This document shows positions 39,800 to 47,981 of a stretch of DNA of 52,229 nucleotides, in pieces. Location: NCBI GenBank assembly GCA_002366545.1, contig DFBH01000055.1:1-52229 (forward strand). Direction: 5' to 3'. Numbering within the stretch: the first letter of the stretch is position 1; every line of letters starts with the position of its first letter. The notes beneath the pieces were generated by a model. That model was not told the origin of the DNA, did not search any database, and saw nothing but the letters and a program-made list of their open reading frames with translations. The position numbers were made by a program, and so were the translations under genes. This DNA comes from Candidatus Oleimmundimicrobium americanum (GTDB taxonomy: Bacteria; Actinomycetota; Aquicultoria; UBA3085; Oleimmundimicrobiaceae).

Positions 39800-39907
39800 T
39801 TGTGGGTAAAGACATATAGGAGGAATTGAAAGTTGCTAAATAATCACCAAAACTTATCAAAATGGTAGACGTGGGGGCAGAAAGAAGTTAAAAGAGGAGT
39901 TAGATAT

Positions 39908-41215
39908 ATGAGAAAAGTTATACATGGTGAAATTTATAGCCCTGATTTTGATAATCTCAATAAATTAGTATCTGATTGGGCTTCTGCCTATAGGTTTTCC
40001 TTCTGTCGATTTCAGAAAGATAAATTAAGTTTCAACGAAGTTAGAAATTGGGCAAAGACAAAATATCCGTCCTTAAATACTCGCCAAATATCTGATGTGG
40101 TCACACAAGCACAAGGATTGTATTCAAGAGTTGAAGATAAAAAAGTAATATTTGGTGGAAGAAAATATTGGGACAAGTTAATAAAGAATGAGATATCTAA
40201 TGATGAGTGGAAATTCAAAAGAGATAACCAAATATATGTCAGAGGAGATAAAACTAAAAAAGGTAACCCAAATATCCGATTGTTAAACAAAAACGGTGGT
40301 TTTTATTTAAGAGTAACTATTGGAAACAGAAAATTCGAGGAGCATAAACTATTTGTCCCTGCTAAGTTTGAGGAACAATTAGTATCTTTATTCGGTTCAG
40401 GTAATCCTTATAATGTTCGTTTGATAAAAAAAGGCTCACAGCATTATAAAATGGTTATTGATTATGAAGTTGAAAATCCTCAAACAGTAATTGATTTTTC
40501 AAATGGAGTTATTGGCGTAGACGTAAACCCTGACAGGGTTGCAATTTCTGATATAAGGAGAGATGGAAATTTAATCAACTCTTTTTCTGTATTGAACAAT
40601 AGGATGTTTTTTGCATCAACGAACAAAAGAGATTATGAAATTGGTTGCATAGTTAAGCAGATTATGCAGTATGCTTTAAATAGAAATAAGGGAATAGTGT
40701 TTGAAAATTTGAAATTTAAGAAAGAATTTGAGAATCAAGGTAGAAGGTTTAATAGGATAAAGAGTAATTTTGTCTGGAAAAAGTTGCTTACATTGCTTGA
40801 GAGGAAATGTATTGAAAATGGTATTCAATATAAGAAAGTCAATCCCGCTTTTACTTCTGTTATAGGAAAATTTAAATATCAAAAAATGTATAATTTATCC
40901 ATCCATGAATCTGCCTCTTATATAATAGGCAGACGCGGATTAGGATTTAATGAGAAATTATCTCTTTATAAATATCCATCAAAATATGTGAAGGAAGTTG
41001 TTTTTGACCTTGCCGGAAATAAAACAAAACGAATTCACAGTTGGGCTTCGTGGAGAAAGTTAAGAGATAATTATAAAAAAGCCGTCCTCACAGGACTTCA
41101 GGGAAGAATGTCAGACCTAAAAGAGTCTGATGACAATCTCTGTTATGTAGGTGAGAACCCTACAGGCGAAGTCCTCTCAAAAGAACTGGTCTTGAGGGGC
41201 ATAAATGGTTACTAA
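39908..41215 (+). CDS. TnpB/Cas12-superfamily (IS200/IS605 OrfB-like) protein lacking the zinc ribbon and with an atypical RuvC-III motif
   Basis: RuvC-I-like VIGVDVNPDR; RuvC-II-like GIVFENLKF; NPAFTSVIG in place of the usual TS-x-x-C zinc-finger entry; IHESASYIIGRRGLG where D-x-D/N-AA-x-N is expected. No CxxC pair occurs anywhere. GAGGAG RBS 8 nt upstream. The gene is visibly more AT-rich than its neighbours. Confidence 0.7.
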   Translation: MRKVIHGEIYSPDFDNLNKLVSDWASAYRFSFCRFQKDKLSFNEVRNWAKTKYPSLNTRQISDVVTQAQGLYSRVEDKKVIFGGRKYWDKLIKNEISNDEWKFKRDNQIYVRGDKTKKGNPNIRLLNKNGGFYLRVTIGNRKFEEHKLFVPAKFEEQLVSLFGSGNPYNVRLIKKGSQHYKMVIDYEVENPQTVIDFSNGVIGVDVNPDRVAISDIRRDGNLINSFSVLNNRMFFASTNKRDYEIGCIVKQIMQYALNRNKGIVFENLKFKKEFENQGRRFNRIKSNFVWKKLLTLLERKCIENGIQYKKVNPAFTSVIGKFKYQKMYNLSIHESASYIIGRRGLGFNEKLSLYKYPSKYVKEVVFDLAGNKTKRIHSWASWRKLRDNYKKAVLTGLQGRMSDLKESDDNLCYVGENPTGEVLSKELVLRGINGY

Positions 41216-41258
41216 ACATCTATAGGAAGAAGAAAGGCTTCCTTCAAAGCTCATTATT

Positions 41259-41288
41259 TGGACCAAGGGTCCATTGTCCTCTGGACAA
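41259..41288 (+). repeat. 30-nt twin-hairpin cassette (TGGACC-aag-GGTCCA followed by TTGTCC-tct-GGACAA) in the TnpB-like/recA spacer
   Basis: Two abutting perfect hairpins, each with a 6-bp stem and 3-nt loop. The architecture is the same as the indel cassette at 43042-43071, and the TTGTCC/GGACAA stem is shared. Confidence 0.8.
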
Positions 41289-41315
41289 TTTGGTGGGTTT
41301 TGTAAACCAGGGGAA

Positions 41316-42362
41316 ATGGAACGCGACAAAGTATTGGAATTGACAAAAGAACAAATTGAGAGAAAATACGGCAAAGGCGCCATTATGAGACTTGGCGATA
41401 ATCCTTTTAAGCTTGATTACTCGGTAATTTCAACGGGTTCTTTAGCTTTGGATGTTGCATTGGGCGTGGGCGGGATTCCAAGGGGAAGGGTTGTTGAGAT
41501 ATTTGGGCCGGAAGCGTCGGGCAAGACCACTCTGGCCTTGCAAATAATCGCTCAAGCTCAAAAAACAGGGGGAGCAGCGGCATTTATCGATGCTGAACAT
41601 GCTCTTGACTCAGCGTATGCGCGGAACCTGGGAGTGGATGTAGATAACTTGCTTGTTTCTCAACCCGATACGGGCGAACAAGCACTTGAAATTGCAGAAA
41701 TGCTTGTTAGAAGCGGAGCTCTTGACGTTGTGGTTATTGATTCAGTTGCCGCGCTTGTGCCCCGAGCTGAGATTGAGGGTGATATGGGAGATTCCCACGT
41801 AGGTCTCCAAGCGAGGTTAATGTCACAAGCTCTGCGAAAATTATCCGGCGTCATCAGTAAATCTCAAACCTCTGCAATATTTATCAACCAACTACGAGAA
41901 AAAATAGGGATAATGTTTGGCAATCCCGAGGTAACTCCGGGTGGTCGTGCTTTAAAATTTTATTCTTCCGTGAGGATTGATATAAGGAGGATTGAGTCTC
42001 TCAAACAGGGGATTGATATTGTCGGAAACAGGGTTCGCGCAAAAATTGTTAAAAATAAAGTCGCTCCTCCTTTTAAAAAGGCAGAATTTGACATCGTTTA
42101 CGGCAAAGGAATTTCCAGAGAGGGCACTTTAATCGATATGGGTGTTGACCAAGGGATAGTGAATAAAAGCGGAGCTTGGTACACTTGTGGGGACGAGAGG
42201 CTTGGCCAGGGAAGAGAAAACGCAAAGCAGTTTTTACAGGAAAATCTCAAAATGGCCGATGAGATAGAAAAAAAGATTAAGGTTGCGGTTGGTTTAATTG
42301 AAAACGAAGAAAAAACTGATAAAAAAACCGATAAACAAGCAAAAAATAAAAGCATGGGTTAA
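41316..42362 (+). CDS. recA: Recombinase RecA
   Basis: [28 protein letters not shown]-terminus and Walker [11 protein letters not shown] prefer the ATG at 41316. The ORF-track TTG at 41274 lies inside the hairpin cassette and adds a non-RecA extension. The SD is weak and close either way. Confidence 0.95.
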
Positions 42363-42847: not shown

Positions 42848-42904
42848 ACCACCGGTTTATCCGGTGGGCACGGCGGTAGGCAGGTCGTGGCAACCCCTCA
42901 CCTC

Positions 42905-43311
42905 CGTCATTGCGCCTGTCCGCCTCTGGCGGGAGCCCTGGTAAGGGCGTGGCAATCTCGGTTTAGCCATAATAGCCAACTTTCTTTTTTGTTTATTCAG
43001 TTGTATTTTTTGTGGGTCGCACGCACTTCACGCTCGGTTGTTTGTCCAAAGGACAATCCTCCTCTGGAGGAATCCGCGACTTTACTCGCTCCGGGCGGGC
43101 CGAGAATAACTCGCTTGCGCTCAGACAGATTCTCGGGCGCTCACTTCGTTCGTCTGTCCGCCTTCAGCCAGAAAGAGGCTTGAGCCAAGGGTTCATCAGC
43201 CTCTGGCTGAGATGGTCCCCTGGACTACTGGAGGGCTTTCCGGCCATCCACTCGCTTCATCGGGGCGGCCTCAAATTTCGCCTTGTCCAACCCACCGGGG
43301 TTTTAAAAACC
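42905..43311 (+). repeat. Copy A of a GC-rich mosaic repeat of roughly 350-400 bp
   Basis: Aligns by eye with 47181-47534 from CGTCATTGCGCCTGTCCGCC through GGCAATCTCGGTTTA..., CTTTCTTTTTTGTTTATTCA.TTGTATTTTTTGTGGGTCG, GGGCCGAGAATAACTCGCTTGCGCTCAGACAGATTCTCGGGCGCTCAC and TTCATCGGGGCGGCCTCAA.TTTCGC to CCCACCGGGGTTT. Three hairpin-associated indels interrupt the alignment. Confidence 0.85.
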
Positions 43312-43342
43312 ATAATCAGTAAAAAGCTTTTATTTTTTTCCT

Positions 43343-43364
43343 GAAAGCTAACGGCTGGCAGCTG
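43343..43364 (+). repeat. NNNNGCT heptamer array (3 units)
   Basis: GAAAGCT AACGGCT GGCAGCT G. The paralogous position in the second island carries 4+4 units. Confidence 0.7.
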
Positions 43365-43498
43365 TATTCAAATGATATGGCAACTAGCGAATAGCAGATG
43401 GCGGGAGGAGCGTTAAGCGACGCGGCAATCTCTGGGTTACATTTTACATTTTTCATTATCGTTTTTATATTTTCATTTTTATTTCTTATTTTGAAAAA

Positions 43499-43629
43499 CC
43501 TGCCCGCCTTCAGCCAAAGGTTTCAGCCAAAGGCTGATGGTTCTCTGGACTACTGGCGGGAGTGACCAAAGGAAGCGCGGCAATCTCATCCTCCTCCCGC
43601 CCTCGATGGGAGGGGCGGGAGGAGGATGA
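43499..43629 (+). repeat. Hairpin-repeat unit with a 46-nt loop insert, followed by a purine/pyrimidine hairpin of about 19 bp
   Basis: CCCGCC (43503-43508), insert TTCAGCCAAAGG...GGACTACT (43509-43554), GGCGGG (43555-43560), then ...GCGCGGCAATCTC (to 43587). Then TCATCCTCCTCCCGCCCTC / GAGGGGCGGGAGGAGGATGA (43586-43629), which has one bulged G. Confidence 0.8.
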
Positions 43630-43955
43630 GACAAACAATGGCCGGTGGCTTTTCTGCCCTGTGGTTGGTGGTAGTTTACTTGGCTTTTGATTTTTATAAT
43701 TGACAACAACCGGTCTTTAATAATAATATGATTAAGAATTGTTTTTAAGTTAATAATGGTTGAATTTAAATAGTAGATGTTTTTAAGTATTGTTGGGATG
43801 TTAATATATTTACTTAATTAGTTAATCGATTGTTCATATAAATTTAAAGCTTAAGTTCAAGCTTTAAGATTTTAATTAAATATGGCTAAGAGATTTCCTT
43901 AAATAATTTAATTTATTTAAGGATGATTTGAATTTAATTAAGTAAATTAGAACTT

Positions 43956-45566: not shown

Positions 45567-46682
45567 TTGTCTTCAAAAGAGCAAGATAAATTAATAAACT
45601 TTATCAAAGGAGTTGCCGGAGACGAGCATCTGAAAATCGAAGAGGATTTAGGAAACGGGTTCGTTCGTCTCCGTGTAAGCGAAGCAGAAAGAAGACAAGC
45701 AAAACATGATATTCGTTTTGCTGAAGATGTAGTCATTGAACTCATTCGTAATTCTCGCGATGCGGGTTGCAGAAATATATTTGTTGCTTTCCATAAAGAT
45801 AAAGATATTAGAAATATCGTTATTATAGATGACGGGAGCGGTATACCGTCTAATTTAATGCCAAGGATTTTTGAGCCGCGCGTTACCTCTAAGCTTGAAA
45901 CCGTTGTTACCGACAAATATGGCATTCATGGACGCGGAATGGCTTTATATTCCATAAAAAGCAATGTCGAAGACGTTGATATAGTTGCCTCGGCAATTAA
46001 CAGAGGGTCGGTAATAAGGGTTAGAGTGAATACCGGAAAACTCCCGGAACGCCACGATCAATCCACCTTTCCTATAACAAAGATGCATCGCGGAGAAATT
46101 AATGTTGTCAAGGGGCCTCATAACATCTTGAGGTTGTTGACGGAATTTTGTATCGAACACCCTGAATTAAAAATCTTTTTTGGTTCCCCGGCTCAAGTTC
46201 TTGCCACAATGTATGATTTAAGTCAGAATTTATTAACATCAAATAAAGGCGGTAAGGCGGTATTTCTTGAAAATTTTGAAGAAGGGGTGCTTCCTCTGTG
46301 GCAATGCACGGGTTTCATTGCGGACGTAAAGGCACTTATGGAAATATCGAAAACTTATTATGGTTTAGATGTTTCCCAACGCAATGTTCACCGGATTTTT
46401 AGTGGTGAAATAGAATCCCTCGATGATTTGCATTCAATTTTAATCAGTAAACATAAAAATTCTGTTACCAAGAGAGTATCCGGGGTTGATTTAAGTTGCT
46501 CAACCAATCTTGTAAAATATATCCAGAAAGATGATTTAGACATATTGTCAAAGGGAATTGAAAAGGAATTTAATAAAATAGGAAATAAATATTTTTTACA
46601 CTTAAAGGGCGACCCAAAGATTTGGCGAGAAAAAAACAAGATAAAAATTTTATTAGAAGTTGAAGGAGAAGACGATTTTTGA
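45567..46682 (+). CDS. Orphan GHKL/GHL-type ATPase with MutL-N-like motifs; the C-terminal roughly 200 aa are uncharacterised
   Basis: ELIRNSRDAGC (N box), IIDDGSGIP (G1), FEPRVTSK (compare MutL RHATSK), and GIHGRGMALYSI (G2). No DHp/His-kinase domain and no MutL C-terminal domain. TTG start after AGGGG. Confidence 0.65.
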   Translation: MSSKEQDKLINFIKGVAGDEHLKIEEDLGNGFVRLRVSEAERRQAKHDIRFAEDVVIELIRNSRDAGCRNIFVAFHKDKDIRNIVIIDDGSGIPSNLMPRIFEPRVTSKLETVVTDKYGIHGRGMALYSIKSNVEDVDIVASAINRGSVIRVRVNTGKLPERHDQSTFPITKMHRGEINVVKGPHNILRLLTEFCIEHPELKIFFGSPAQVLATMYDLSQNLLTSNKGGKAVFLENFEEGVLPLWQCTGFIADVKALMEISKTYYGLDVSQRNVHRIFSGEIESLDDLHSILISKHKNSVTKRVSGVDLSCSTNLVKYIQKDDLDILSKGIEKEFNKIGNKYFLHLKGDPKIWREKNKIKILLEVEGEDDF

Positions 46683-47074: not shown

Positions 47075-47180
47075 GACGAAGGAATTTTGTTAAATCTACA
47101 AATATTGAGATTAATAAAGAGATTTCATCGAAATTCCTGAGCTGGGCGGCCGATCATTTTTTACGGCTCCTCCCGCCATC

Positions 47181-47534
47181 CGTCATTGCGCCTGTCCGCC
47201 TTCAGCCAAAGGTTTCAACCAAAGGCTGATGGTCCTCTGGACTACTGGCGGGAGCGACCAAAGGAAGCGCGGCAATCTCGGTTTAACTATAATAGCTAAC
47301 TTTCTTTTTTGTTTATTCAATTGTATTTTTTGTGGGTCGAACACGCTCCACGCTCGGCCGTATCCGCGACTTTACTCGTTCCAGGCGGGCCGAGAATAAC
47401 TCGCTTGCGCTCAGACAGATTCTCGGGCGCTCACTTTGCTCGCCTGCCCACCTCTGGTGGGCTTTCCGGCCTTCCGCTCGTTTCATCGGGGCGGCCTCAA
47501 GTTTCGCTTTGTCCGACCCACCGGGGTTTAAAAG
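47181..47534 (+). repeat. Copy B of the GC-rich mosaic repeat (same orientation as copy A)
   Basis: See copy A. Compared with A, B carries a 46-nt insert in the first CCGCC/GGCGG hairpin (47201-47246). B lacks the 30-nt twin hairpin and the 67-nt insert that A carries. Confidence 0.85.
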
Positions 47535-47563
47535 GCAAAACTAATGCCTATTGGCTGTATATT

Positions 47564-47658
47564 CGTCATTGCGCCTGCCCGCCTCTGGCGGGAGTGACCC
47601 GCCAACGGTGGGGAGCGCGGCAATCTCGTTCTCACCCCTCCCTCAATGGGAGGGGTGA
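47564..47658 (+). repeat. Short hairpin-repeat unit (CGTCATTGCGCCTG...GCGCGGCAATCTC) followed by an 11-bp purine/pyrimidine hairpin
   Basis: CCCGCC-tct-GGCGGG at 47578-47592 and GGCAATCTC at 47619-47627. TCACCCCTCCC (47632-47642), loop tcaat, GGGAGGGGTGA (47648-47658). Confidence 0.8.
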
Positions 47659-47732
47659 GGGGAGGGTGAAACAAACAACCCACTCGGGTTTTTAAAAACC
47701 AAAATCTAACAACAATGCTCTTTTGTTTTCCT

Positions 47733-47806
47733 GAAGGCTGAAGGCTAGAGGCTAATGGCTGTTTCTAATGTTTTTCCTGGAGACTGGCGTCTGGCAGCTG
47801 GAGTCT
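47733..47806 (+). repeat. Two NNNNGCT/NNNNNCT heptamer arrays (4+4 units)
   Basis: GAAGGCT GAAGGCT AGAGGCT AATGGCT (47733-47760), and GGAGACT GGCGTCT GGCAGCT GGAGTCT (47779-47806). Confidence 0.75.
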
Positions 47807-47981
47807 GTTTTTAAATGATATGGCATTTAATTTGATGGTTTTATACAATAGAGTTAAAATTTAAATAAATCCAGGGCCCGCATCAGGGGCAGGAAAGCCA
47901 TCGGCCTTGTAGCCGGTAGTAGTTTACTTACGTAATGAAAAAATTATTGTGCAGATAAAAGCTGTAGGCAGGTTTTAAAAA

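Follow-up and report, generated by a model that had tools for sequence, protein, structure and literature searches.

What is the 30-nucleotide (nt) twin hairpin at positions 43042-43071 of contig DFBH01000055.1 from Candidatus Oleimmundimicrobium americanum? The window analyzed here, 52,229 nt in its entirety, contains two copies of a repeat that we call M2, both on the plus strand (copy A, 43012-43295; copy B, 47332-47521), and the plus-strand cassette in question, formed by the hairpins TTGTCC-aaa-GGACAA and TCCTCC-tct-GGAGGA, is found in copy A. The original prediction, made from the letters of the DNA, described it as a precise 30-nt insertion or deletion (indel) between paralogous repeats and suggested a very small mobile or templated hairpin module; the tests proposed with it all came out in favor of such a module. 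We consider that 43042-43071 probably represents a single copy of a mobile DNA element that is ultra-small and non-autonomous; we name it the prokaryotic double-hairpin element. For this element we observed that insertion is precise and leaves no duplication, that a target is preferred while orientation does not matter, that copies nest, and that a selection filter acts in genes.

Alignment of the paralogous regions (42880-43320 versus 47160-47545, ~90% identical outside indels) placed the cassette in a clean gap of exactly 30 nt, so that the predicted coordinates and sequence proved exact. Copy A reads CGGTTGT, followed by the cassette TTGTCCaaaGGACAA TCCTCCtctGGAGGA and then ATCCGCGAC, whereas the sequence in copy B is CGGCCGT^ATCCGCGAC, where ^ (between 47361 and 47362) marks the empty site. 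The boundaries of the indel cannot be slid, and no target-site duplication is present. M2 has a basic form of about 171 nt (the repeat spans ~170-280 nt) closed by the 8-bp stem GTGGGTCG/CGACCCAC. In all, 12 copies, every one from this lineage, came from a metagenome scan with the M2 core, from the window, and from strain L127; the site is filled in three of them and empty in eight, and in the L127 copy a larger deletion covers it. The filled copies (window copy A, L131, and L135, the latter two with AGA as the first loop) share flank variants (CTCGGYTGT) and therefore represent one event, not three. The cassette entered the M2 repeat and was then carried along as an M2 sub-lineage multiplied (3 of 12), the simplest history being a single insertion multiplied by M2 itself. 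The same cassette occupies the same site in independent assemblies of the locus (L001-L003), and in L002 its M2 offset is identical. As to M2 itself, an internal perfect stem, CCGAGAAT/ATTCTCGG, was observed in the window copies, L127, and L129-L136. The ends of the repeat, of which there are at least 12 copies in the lineage, show two alternative left-hand contexts, and M2 could be a MITE (a transposable element of the miniature inverted-repeat type) or a multi-copy non-coding RNA.

A second cassette (41259-41288, plus strand; TGGACC-aag-GGTCCA / TTGTCC-tct-GGACAA; TGGACCaagGGTCCA TTGTCCtctGGACAA) lies in the recA leader, and the earlier observation that it shares the design and reuses the TTGTCC/GGACAA stem in the other position agrees with the sequence. 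Its target is a TnpB-type element (39908-41311, plus strand), delimited by TIGR01766 and right-end alignment, that comprises an open reading frame (ORF; 39908-41215) and a conserved right end (to ...GGTTTTGTAAACCAGG). The 435-residue product scored 58.7 bits against TIGR01766 (cut-off 32), and the gene ends 44 nt upstream of the cassette. Alignment of 3' flanks defined the conserved element end as ...GAAGAAAGGCNTCCTTCAAAAC..TT^TTTGGTRGGTTTTGTAAACCAGG, with the cassette at ^ in the window copy only; the homologous elements L137, L140, and L143 align on both sides without exactly these 30 nt. Since these three homologs are empty, the cassette is a later insertion and not part of the TnpB right end, and its structure is not conserved among the homologs as a right-end or omega-RNA scaffold. 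The predicted match to a structure beside the TnpB-like gene thus held for the design, and the cassette there does not belong to that element's own structure. In short, a TnpB-type insertion sequence just upstream of recA received another copy in its right end, and the presence/absence polymorphism expected of a mobile module was found both among M2 paralogs (3 filled, 8 empty) and among TnpB homologs (1 filled, 3 empty). Separately, the solo TnpB-related element (about 39850-41311) sits between ligT and recA, and the Oleimmundimicrobium relative L146 lacks it at the syntenic locus. The element's right end finishes immediately ahead of the ribosome-binding site and start codon of recA (ATG at 41316), and recA is therefore now read through or out of the transposon end.

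Five plus-strand sites in the window match the pattern TNNNCCAARGGNNNATNNNCCTCTGGNNNA with up to two mismatches (0.02 expected; equaled by none of 100 shuffles), a design that reads T-N3-CC-ARA-GG-N3'-A and then T-N3-CC-TCT-GG-N3'-A. Each folds as two 6-bp/3-nt hairpins (-13.5 kcal/mol, z about -2.2), and the perfect GC-rich NNNCC-N3-GGNNN mini-hairpins of the 52-kb window are all located in three spacers between 41.2 and 47.6 kb. The remaining three cassettes, also on the plus strand, lie inside other hairpin modules. The pattern-matching cassette at 43181-43210 (TGAGCC-aag-GGTTCA / TCAGCC-tct-GGCTGA), flanked by the 4-nt repeat GGCT and nested in the same way in L134, is held by a 64-nt composite block (43164-43227, plus strand), a twin hairpin with an enlarged first loop that was inserted at CCGCCT^CTGG of a 19-nt module in M2 copy A and is absent from copy B and the other M2 copies. 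Two 43-nt plus-strand insertions, each a 13-nt partial duplicate followed by a cassette, occupy TCT loops of R units, a neighboring repeat described below: 43510-43552, in a partial R unit, carries 43523-43552 (one mismatch to the pattern), and 47202-47244, in the R unit of copy B (CCGCCT^CTGGCGG), carries 47215-47244, which matches the pattern and is absent from the copy A R unit. The two further indels between the A and B regions (43 nt in B, 64 nt in A) are also hairpin modules; each interrupts, at CCGCCT^CTGG, the TCT loop of a hairpin that was there earlier.

Related single-hairpin modules of 19 nt (consensus GCCTGYCCRCC-tct-GGYGG, with compensatory stem variants among M2 copies) were missing at two places in the orthologous spacer of the close strain L127, the kind of strain variation that the prediction had proposed to look for. 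These are GCCTGCCCACCtctGGTGG at 47442-47460 (plus strand, inside M2 copy B and present in 6 of the 12 M2 copies) and GCCTGCCCGCCtctGGCGG at 47573-47591 (plus strand, inside an R unit), where L127 reads CGTCATTGC^GAGTGACC. Nesting of cassettes inside earlier hairpin modules helped to enlarge the spacer between recX and rny, from about 270 to 1160 nt, and also the one between spoVS and the PHP gene. By RNase Y, the nearest named relative (82% identity) is Candidatus Oleimmundimicrobium, an uncultivated lineage that branches deeply in the Actinomycetota. Its gene order is the same; its recX-rny spacer is 271 nt, AT-rich, and devoid of GC hairpin modules, compared with 1160 nt in the window, and its ligT-recA gap of 54 nt has no TnpB element. 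The repeat-laden spacers of the window are therefore recent accretions. The spoVS-PHP spacer measures 959 nt in the window versus 686 nt in strain L127, and short-read assemblies of the locus break at the repeat-laden spacers.

We then considered how far the cassette extends beyond this lineage. A scan of one genome per prokaryotic species with a pattern of 18 specified bases, the stems being left free, matched at least 120 loci in other genomes, with about 35 chance matches estimated for the whole collection. Both stems were complementary in 100 of the 128 matches listed, compared with about 0.3% by chance. Five copies in the window, further ones in contigs of the same lineage, and these loci replace the two instances from which the prediction started, at a frequency orders of magnitude over chance. 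Among the matches listed, the hosts included many Patescibacteria, Ignavibacteria, Bacteroidota, uncultured Gammaproteobacteria, Omnitrophota, Elusimicrobiota, and Zixibacteria, as well as Margulisbacteria, Melainabacteria, Planctomycetota, Verrucomicrobiota, Chloroflexota, a KSB1 single-cell genome, and a Nanoarchaeota genome; one cassette consensus spans more than 15 phyla. The commonest form is TCCGCCAAAGGCGGATCCGCCTCTGGCGGA, and the flanks are unrelated between loci and AT-rich. Extra copies, some of them degenerate, occurred in the same 8-kb loci, and no relaxed matches turned up in a control in which the 0.85 Mb of loci had been block-shuffled. IMG/VR yielded a single match. No prokaryotic description of the cassette was found by DNA sequence, peptide, or concept in a limited literature library, where absence of evidence is all that this represents. 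All-against-all ORF clustering of 121 loci detected no gene family that travels with the cassettes: the top clusters were proteins with C-terminal domains of the type IX secretion system (T9SS) and housekeeping operons, with no shared transposase. Small GIY-YIG nuclease genes were rejected as the mobilizer since they were present in just 6 of the 121 loci.

The cassette consists of two abutting 15-nt palindromes, T-N3-CC-loop-GG-N3'-A, of which the first has the loop A(A/G)A or AAG and the second TCT. Across 69 distinct cassettes, the six free stem positions formed a standard pair in 94.9% of cells compared with 77.3% after shuffling, and stem changes on both sides numbered 125 against 40.5 +/- 4.8 in shuffles, a value equaled by none of 500. 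When the 3' stem partners were slid by 1 to 3 columns, pairing fell to 21-43% of cells. Such conservation of structure while sequence varies is also what a functional cis-element selected in place would show, acting in RNA or single-stranded DNA as a site for a dimeric protein, an mRNA stabilizer or processing site, or a structured part of an M2 RNA, with the indel then recording gain or loss of a regulatory module. All five window cassettes lie in one orientation on the coding strand of transcribed spacers, several of the partly decayed ones keep G.T rather than A.C mismatches, and REP-like hairpins stabilize mRNAs (PMC3733652). Over the whole set, however, stem decay was symmetric (20 G.T versus 23 A.C mismatches), which argues against strand-specific selection on RNA after insertion and led us to reject it; the RNA-recognized motif raised in the prediction is disfavored on the same count. 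Orientation relative to genes was also unbiased (54 on the same strand, 41 on the opposite one), and the same 30 nt recur with unrelated flanks, in ORFs, in tRNA fragments, and nested in each other. Neither the nearest relative, in its orthologous spacers, nor most M2 copies nor the homologous TnpB elements have them. The GC-rich hairpin is followed by R, A, A at +1 to +3 and not by the U-run of an intrinsic terminator. Rfam searches, at gathering scores and permissively, assigned neither the cassette nor M2 nor the R units to a family (no match in the window, and chance-level hits at E up to 5). A cis-element selected in place is consequently an unlikely account, and we return to a mobile element as the preferred one.

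Where, then, does the element insert? The flank consensus over 95 cassettes was T, T, Y at -3 to -1 and R, A, A at +1 to +3, with A at +2 in 80 of the 95. The exact hexamer TTYRAA was found at 15 of 96 sites, a 57-fold enrichment with insertion at the center (TTY^RAA), and with at most one mismatch it was found at 42 of 96 (44%) against a background of 2.8%. The tRNA T-loop GGTTC^GAATCC was a recurrent target. Targeting of hairpin loops, prompted by the nested copies of the window and the tRNA loops, was rejected: 23% of reconstructed empty sites fell in predicted loops, compared with 30% of controls. No larger elements bounded by separated AAA-loop and TCT-loop hairpins were seen. With respect to GC skew, there was no orientation bias: in a coarse test on loci of 8 kb or less, the cassette strand had positive skew in 50 of 96 cases.

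These properties bear on a second alternative, in which the cassettes are miniature IS200/IS605 derivatives (PATE- or REP-like) that travel as single-stranded DNA with the help of a Y1 HUH transposase (TnpA or RAYT) whose gene lies elsewhere, the TnpB-side copy being that element's own end. Hairpins at both ends, the lack of target duplication, the TnpB-related gene 44 nt upstream of one copy, and the uniform orientation of the window copies on the strand of positive GC skew would all fit. We nevertheless regard it as improbable. As described above, three homologous TnpB elements conserve both flanks without the cassette; TnpB homologs occur in varied mobile contexts, and one (L140) directly follows a serine recombinase in an IS607-like arrangement, not a Y1 TnpA. 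The target is the symmetric TTY^RAA, informative on both sides, rather than a one-sided tetra- or pentanucleotide. Neither insertion 3' of a fixed 4-5-nt target nor, within the coarse skew test, the replication-linked orientation bias of PATEs, which target the lagging-strand template, was found. Moreover, the terminal hairpins are the whole element and leave no room for guide or cleavage sequences, no neighbor gene is shared, and no Y1 signature was detected in about 190 kb of lineage contigs with a crude H-u-H...Y regular expression. A link to Y1-HUH enzymes, which the prediction proposed to look for, accordingly found no support.

The behavior of the cassette in genes provided further information on the mobile element. 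Its length of exactly 30 nt corresponds to 10 codons, and the canonical, commonest form is stop-free in all six frames. Only 35% of cassettes fell in open stretches of at least 200 residues, compared with 77% of random positions; equivalently, 65% lay outside such stretches versus 23%, which is the non-coding enrichment for which the prediction had proposed a test. Of the copies borne by ORFs, 15 of 27 were in the one frame that reads SAKGGSASGG. Depletion in ORFs, a preferred frame, and a stop-free unit amount to a selection filter typical of selfish inserts. In RsmH the cassette is an exact 10-residue insertion relative to a solved homolog, and in MurF an 11-residue gap coincides with it. 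By the look of their sequences, and not by comparison with a family library, other long ORFs with cassettes presumably encode DnaK, RpoC, Mfd, PheT, Pgk, DnaJ, and ribosomal proteins. Cassettes also occur within T9SS C-terminal domains. In Ignavibacteria and Bacteroidota (L040, L043, and L112; also L064 and L106), they were observed at one position of these sorting domains (...xF^N..SSGIYFY, DNA TTT^AAT), reflecting either repeated strikes on one target motif or spread via a large paralogous domain family.

Two cassettes (at GGTT^GAAAG and GTCTC^GAAAAC) sit in a pseudo-tRNA of L052, a duplicated 5' fragment of tRNA-Ser, and the intact gene 350 nt away carries none; this pair is direct filled/empty proof outside the window lineage. 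An intron-like role in tRNA was rejected, as excision in silico in 121 loci restored no tRNA, the carriers being tRNA fragments beside intact copies. As a separate observation, small GIY-YIG nuclease genes (about 80 residues) adjoin tRNA genes and cassette-bearing tRNA fragments in Bacteroidota and Patescibacteria (L052 1320-2050; L095 4300-4760; L051 2530-2940; L107 5300-5620). In L095 the same cassette is found at GGTTC^GAATCC on both sides of a GIY-YIG gene inserted in tRNA-Asn, and this gene may be a separate tRNA-targeting mobile gene.

The filled and empty sites could in principle arise without mobility, if the cassette were ancestral to M2 and the other sites and had been lost by hairpin-promoted replication slippage, or if it arose repeatedly de novo by template-switch (quasi-palindrome) mutation. 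Palindromes are deletion-prone, the GGCT repeat around 43181-43210 is compatible with slippage, and the spacers turn over fast between strains. Yet the cassette is missing from 8 of the 11 M2 copies that retain the site and from all three homologous TnpB ends; the junctions are clean, and neither 43042 nor 41259 shows microhomology. A template switch would copy neighboring sequence, whereas here GC-rich stems with the same cores (CC-ARA-GG and CC-TCT-GG) stand in AT-rich, unrelated flanks in many phyla, and insertions interrupt otherwise conserved proteins. We hold an origin by slippage or template switching to be very improbable.

For the mobile element that we favor, the following mechanism can be envisaged. 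Mobilization would occur in trans by a putative enzyme, probably symmetric, that reads the hairpin or palindrome architecture and not the stem sequence. New stem variants that are perfect palindromes would arise if one arm were regenerated from the other during mobilization, via a fold-back or hairpin intermediate, and copies would decay neutrally after insertion. The 3n length and the stop-free frame coding for Gly and Ser may allow copies to survive in the genes of compact genomes, as an adaptation to gene density.

Several points weigh against this interpretation. No mobilizing enzyme was identified and no transposition event was observed, mobility being deduced from comparative presence and absence, and at 43042-43071 a two-state comparison taken alone cannot separate insertion from hairpin-mediated deletion. 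The taxonomic breadth comes from a biased sample of at least 120 loci. Every genome match is to a metagenome-assembled or single-cell genome of an uncultivated organism, and the plasmid (7.3 Gb) and phage (2.3 Gb) collections, which stem mostly from cultured hosts, yielded no cassette; no laboratory system is therefore to hand. In the lineage of the window, cassettes are few and partly decayed, and the insertion sites (ATT^TTT, TGT^ATC, GCT^GAT, and CCT^CTG) match TTY^RAA only in the T at -1, for which reasons present activity there is unproven, and the cassettes of this lineage may be relics.

The exclusive occurrence in metagenome-assembled and single-cell genomes, with none in the plasmid and phage collections, is also what a sequencing or assembly artefact common to metagenome assemblies would produce. 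The matches, however, come from a large number of studies, assemblers, and platforms; long-read assemblies are among the sources, as is a single-cell genome, and the recurrence at one site in L001-L003 is independent of any one assembly. Stems that covary, copies that decay, nest, and pass to paralogs, and the reading-frame bias with ORF depletion, which indicates selection on real DNA, make an artefact the least credible explanation of all, and we give it hardly any weight.

The closest analogs of the cassette are the double-hairpin elements (DHEs) of fungal mitochondria and the GC clusters of yeast mitochondria. As summarized for DHEs (Paquin et al. 2000 via PMC10085805, PMC2800124), these are units of 26-79 nt in a few fungi only (Allomyces, Schizosaccharomyces); identical copies across species suggest horizontal spread, they are retained in transcripts, and their mobilizing mechanism is described as unknown. 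As portrayed there, both DHEs and the cassette are short, GC-rich units with two adjacent stem-loops in AT-rich genomes, dispersed intergenically and occasionally in rRNA or protein genes without flanking duplication. A covarying two-hairpin fold and duplication-free dispersal in spacers and genes were thus found here, and residence in fungal mitochondria was not. Unlike those DHEs, the cassette is fixed at 30 nt, occurs in bacterial and archaeal chromosomes of many phyla, and has a TTY^RAA target preference and a stop-free 10-codon design. GC clusters such as GC42 (PMC4478555) are likewise small, palindromic, GC-rich mobile units in AT-rich DNA whose hairpin is constrained, and they merge, nest, and shuffle as the units of the window spacers do. 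Unlike the cassette, which has two hairpins and no duplication, they are single palindromes of about 30-60 nt with a duplicated AG target.

REP and REPIN sequences (PMC3116915, PMC3733652) resemble the cassette as GC-rich palindromes of 20-40 nt in many copies, mostly intergenic, at times within genes, and thought to be non-autonomous mobile DNA. They have an unpaired GTAG or CGTC tag and a species- or genus-specific sequence, and GTAG REPs are tied to a RAYT gene; the CGTC tag is also how the neighboring R units of the window start. The cassette, in contrast, is untagged, its T-N3-CC start and GG-N3-A end both being paired, keeps one consensus over many phyla instead of a sequence particular to a species or genus, and shows no sign of RAYT in the crude scan of about 190 kb of lineage contigs or among the neighbor genes of 121 loci.

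Two further families are comparable by description only. The Rickettsia palindromic elements, reportedly introduced by Ogata et al. in 2000, are said to measure about 100-150 bp, to be restricted to Rickettsia, and to lie in-frame in protein genes as a tolerated peptide segment; they share with the cassette the survival of palindromic selfish DNA in-frame in genes and differ from it in size, 30 nt here, and in its very broad phylogenetic range. The SDR4-6 repeats of Nostoc, reportedly due to Elhai et al. in 2008, are said to be dispersed repeats of 21-27 nt with hairpin potential, proposed as mobile, nested, and confined to heterocyst-forming cyanobacteria; tiny size and nesting are alike, while sequence and architecture, as described, differ.

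What is new, therefore, is a 30-nt unit within a known kind, small palindromic mobile DNA, that stands out for its size, its breadth, and its presence in essential genes. If this is true, selfish palindromic DNA (REPs, MITEs, and mitochondrial DHEs) would extend to a 30-nt unit common to very distant prokaryotes, and the testable question arises of what machinery moves so small a unit. As the target motif is clear and the architecture fixed, phylogenetic profiling for the responsible enzyme is feasible. In metagenome-assembled genomes, gene calling, alignment, phylogenetic markers, and the discovery of RNA motifs can all be misled by cassettes, since these add 10 residues to conserved proteins and lengthen spacers. 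Cassettes break short-read assemblies at repeats, as at the window locus, and disrupt or remodel the guide-RNA-encoding ends of TnpB elements. A broader proposal, which we put forward tentatively and as somewhat less than an even chance, is that this is an undescribed class of mobile DNA that remains active and moves horizontally among Bacteria and Archaea, above all in small-genome uncultivated lineages. It would be moved by a widespread enzyme that cuts the center of TTY^RAA and recognizes the double hairpin by shape, and it would have been shaped by selection (3n length, six-frame stop-free, Gly/Ser frame) for tolerance in genes, hence seeding 10-residue loops in essential proteins and remodeling structured RNAs such as transposon guide-RNA regions. 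At 30 nt it would then be among the smallest mobile DNA proposed.

The genes of the window stand in the order cinA, ligT, the TnpB-related ORF, recA, recX, rny, a HATPase-domain ORF, spoVS, a PHP-domain gene, and miaB, and their spacers contain several other repeats. R units (CGTCATTGCG...GCGCGGCAATCTC) were located at 42905-42959, 47181-47279, and 47564-47627, with partial units near 43395-43432 and 43497-43587. They are REP-like, with the CGTC tag at their start, and hairpin modules have invaded their interior; the uninvaded form is seen in strain L127 (CGTCATTGCGAGTGACC...). R-like units (GTCATTGCGAGG...GCAATC) were also observed in L034 (Omnitrophota) and L035 (Patescibacteria) and suggest that another family of small repeats is widespread. 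After the R units (43585-43630 and 47625-47672) comes a long GC-rich perfect hairpin, for example ATCCTCCTCCCGCCCTCGATGGGAGGGGCGGGAGGAGGAT then GAGACAAACAA, whose stem changes between copies are compensatory.

Downstream of M2 (47726-47800 versus 43340-43375; L131-L135), a module reads TTTTCCTGRA.GCT...GGCTG...AAATGATATGGCA, and its middle is a variable run of 8-10-nt units resembling GGCTNNNGGCT (CCTGAAGGCTGAAGGCTAGAGGCTAATGGCTG), the number of which varies per copy. A conserved motif, GGCAGGAAAGCCAYCGGCCYTGTRG..GGTRRTAGTTTAC, lies 3' of a promoter-like AATGATATGGCATTTAATTTGATGG....TATACAAT in the window (47875-47935 and 43640-43690), in L146 (8795-8850), in L131, and in L018 (about 150-175). 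The GGCAGGAAAGCCAYCGGCCYTGTRG motif is retained upstream of the PHP-domain gene in the distant relative and is a candidate cis-regulatory RNA, with no match in Rfam. Upstream of rny, comparison of L148 1-130, from a strain whose RNase Y is 96% identical, with window 43460-43690 revealed wholly different sequence between TTATTTTGAAAA and GGTAGTTTAC; L148 has no R unit, cassette, or long hairpin there, and spacer turnover is therefore very fast. Finally, the 371-residue ORF at 45567-46682, between rny and spoVS, has a GHKL/HATPase_c domain as its sole domain, with weak similarity to the MutL N-terminus, and is conserved in position in the relative L146.

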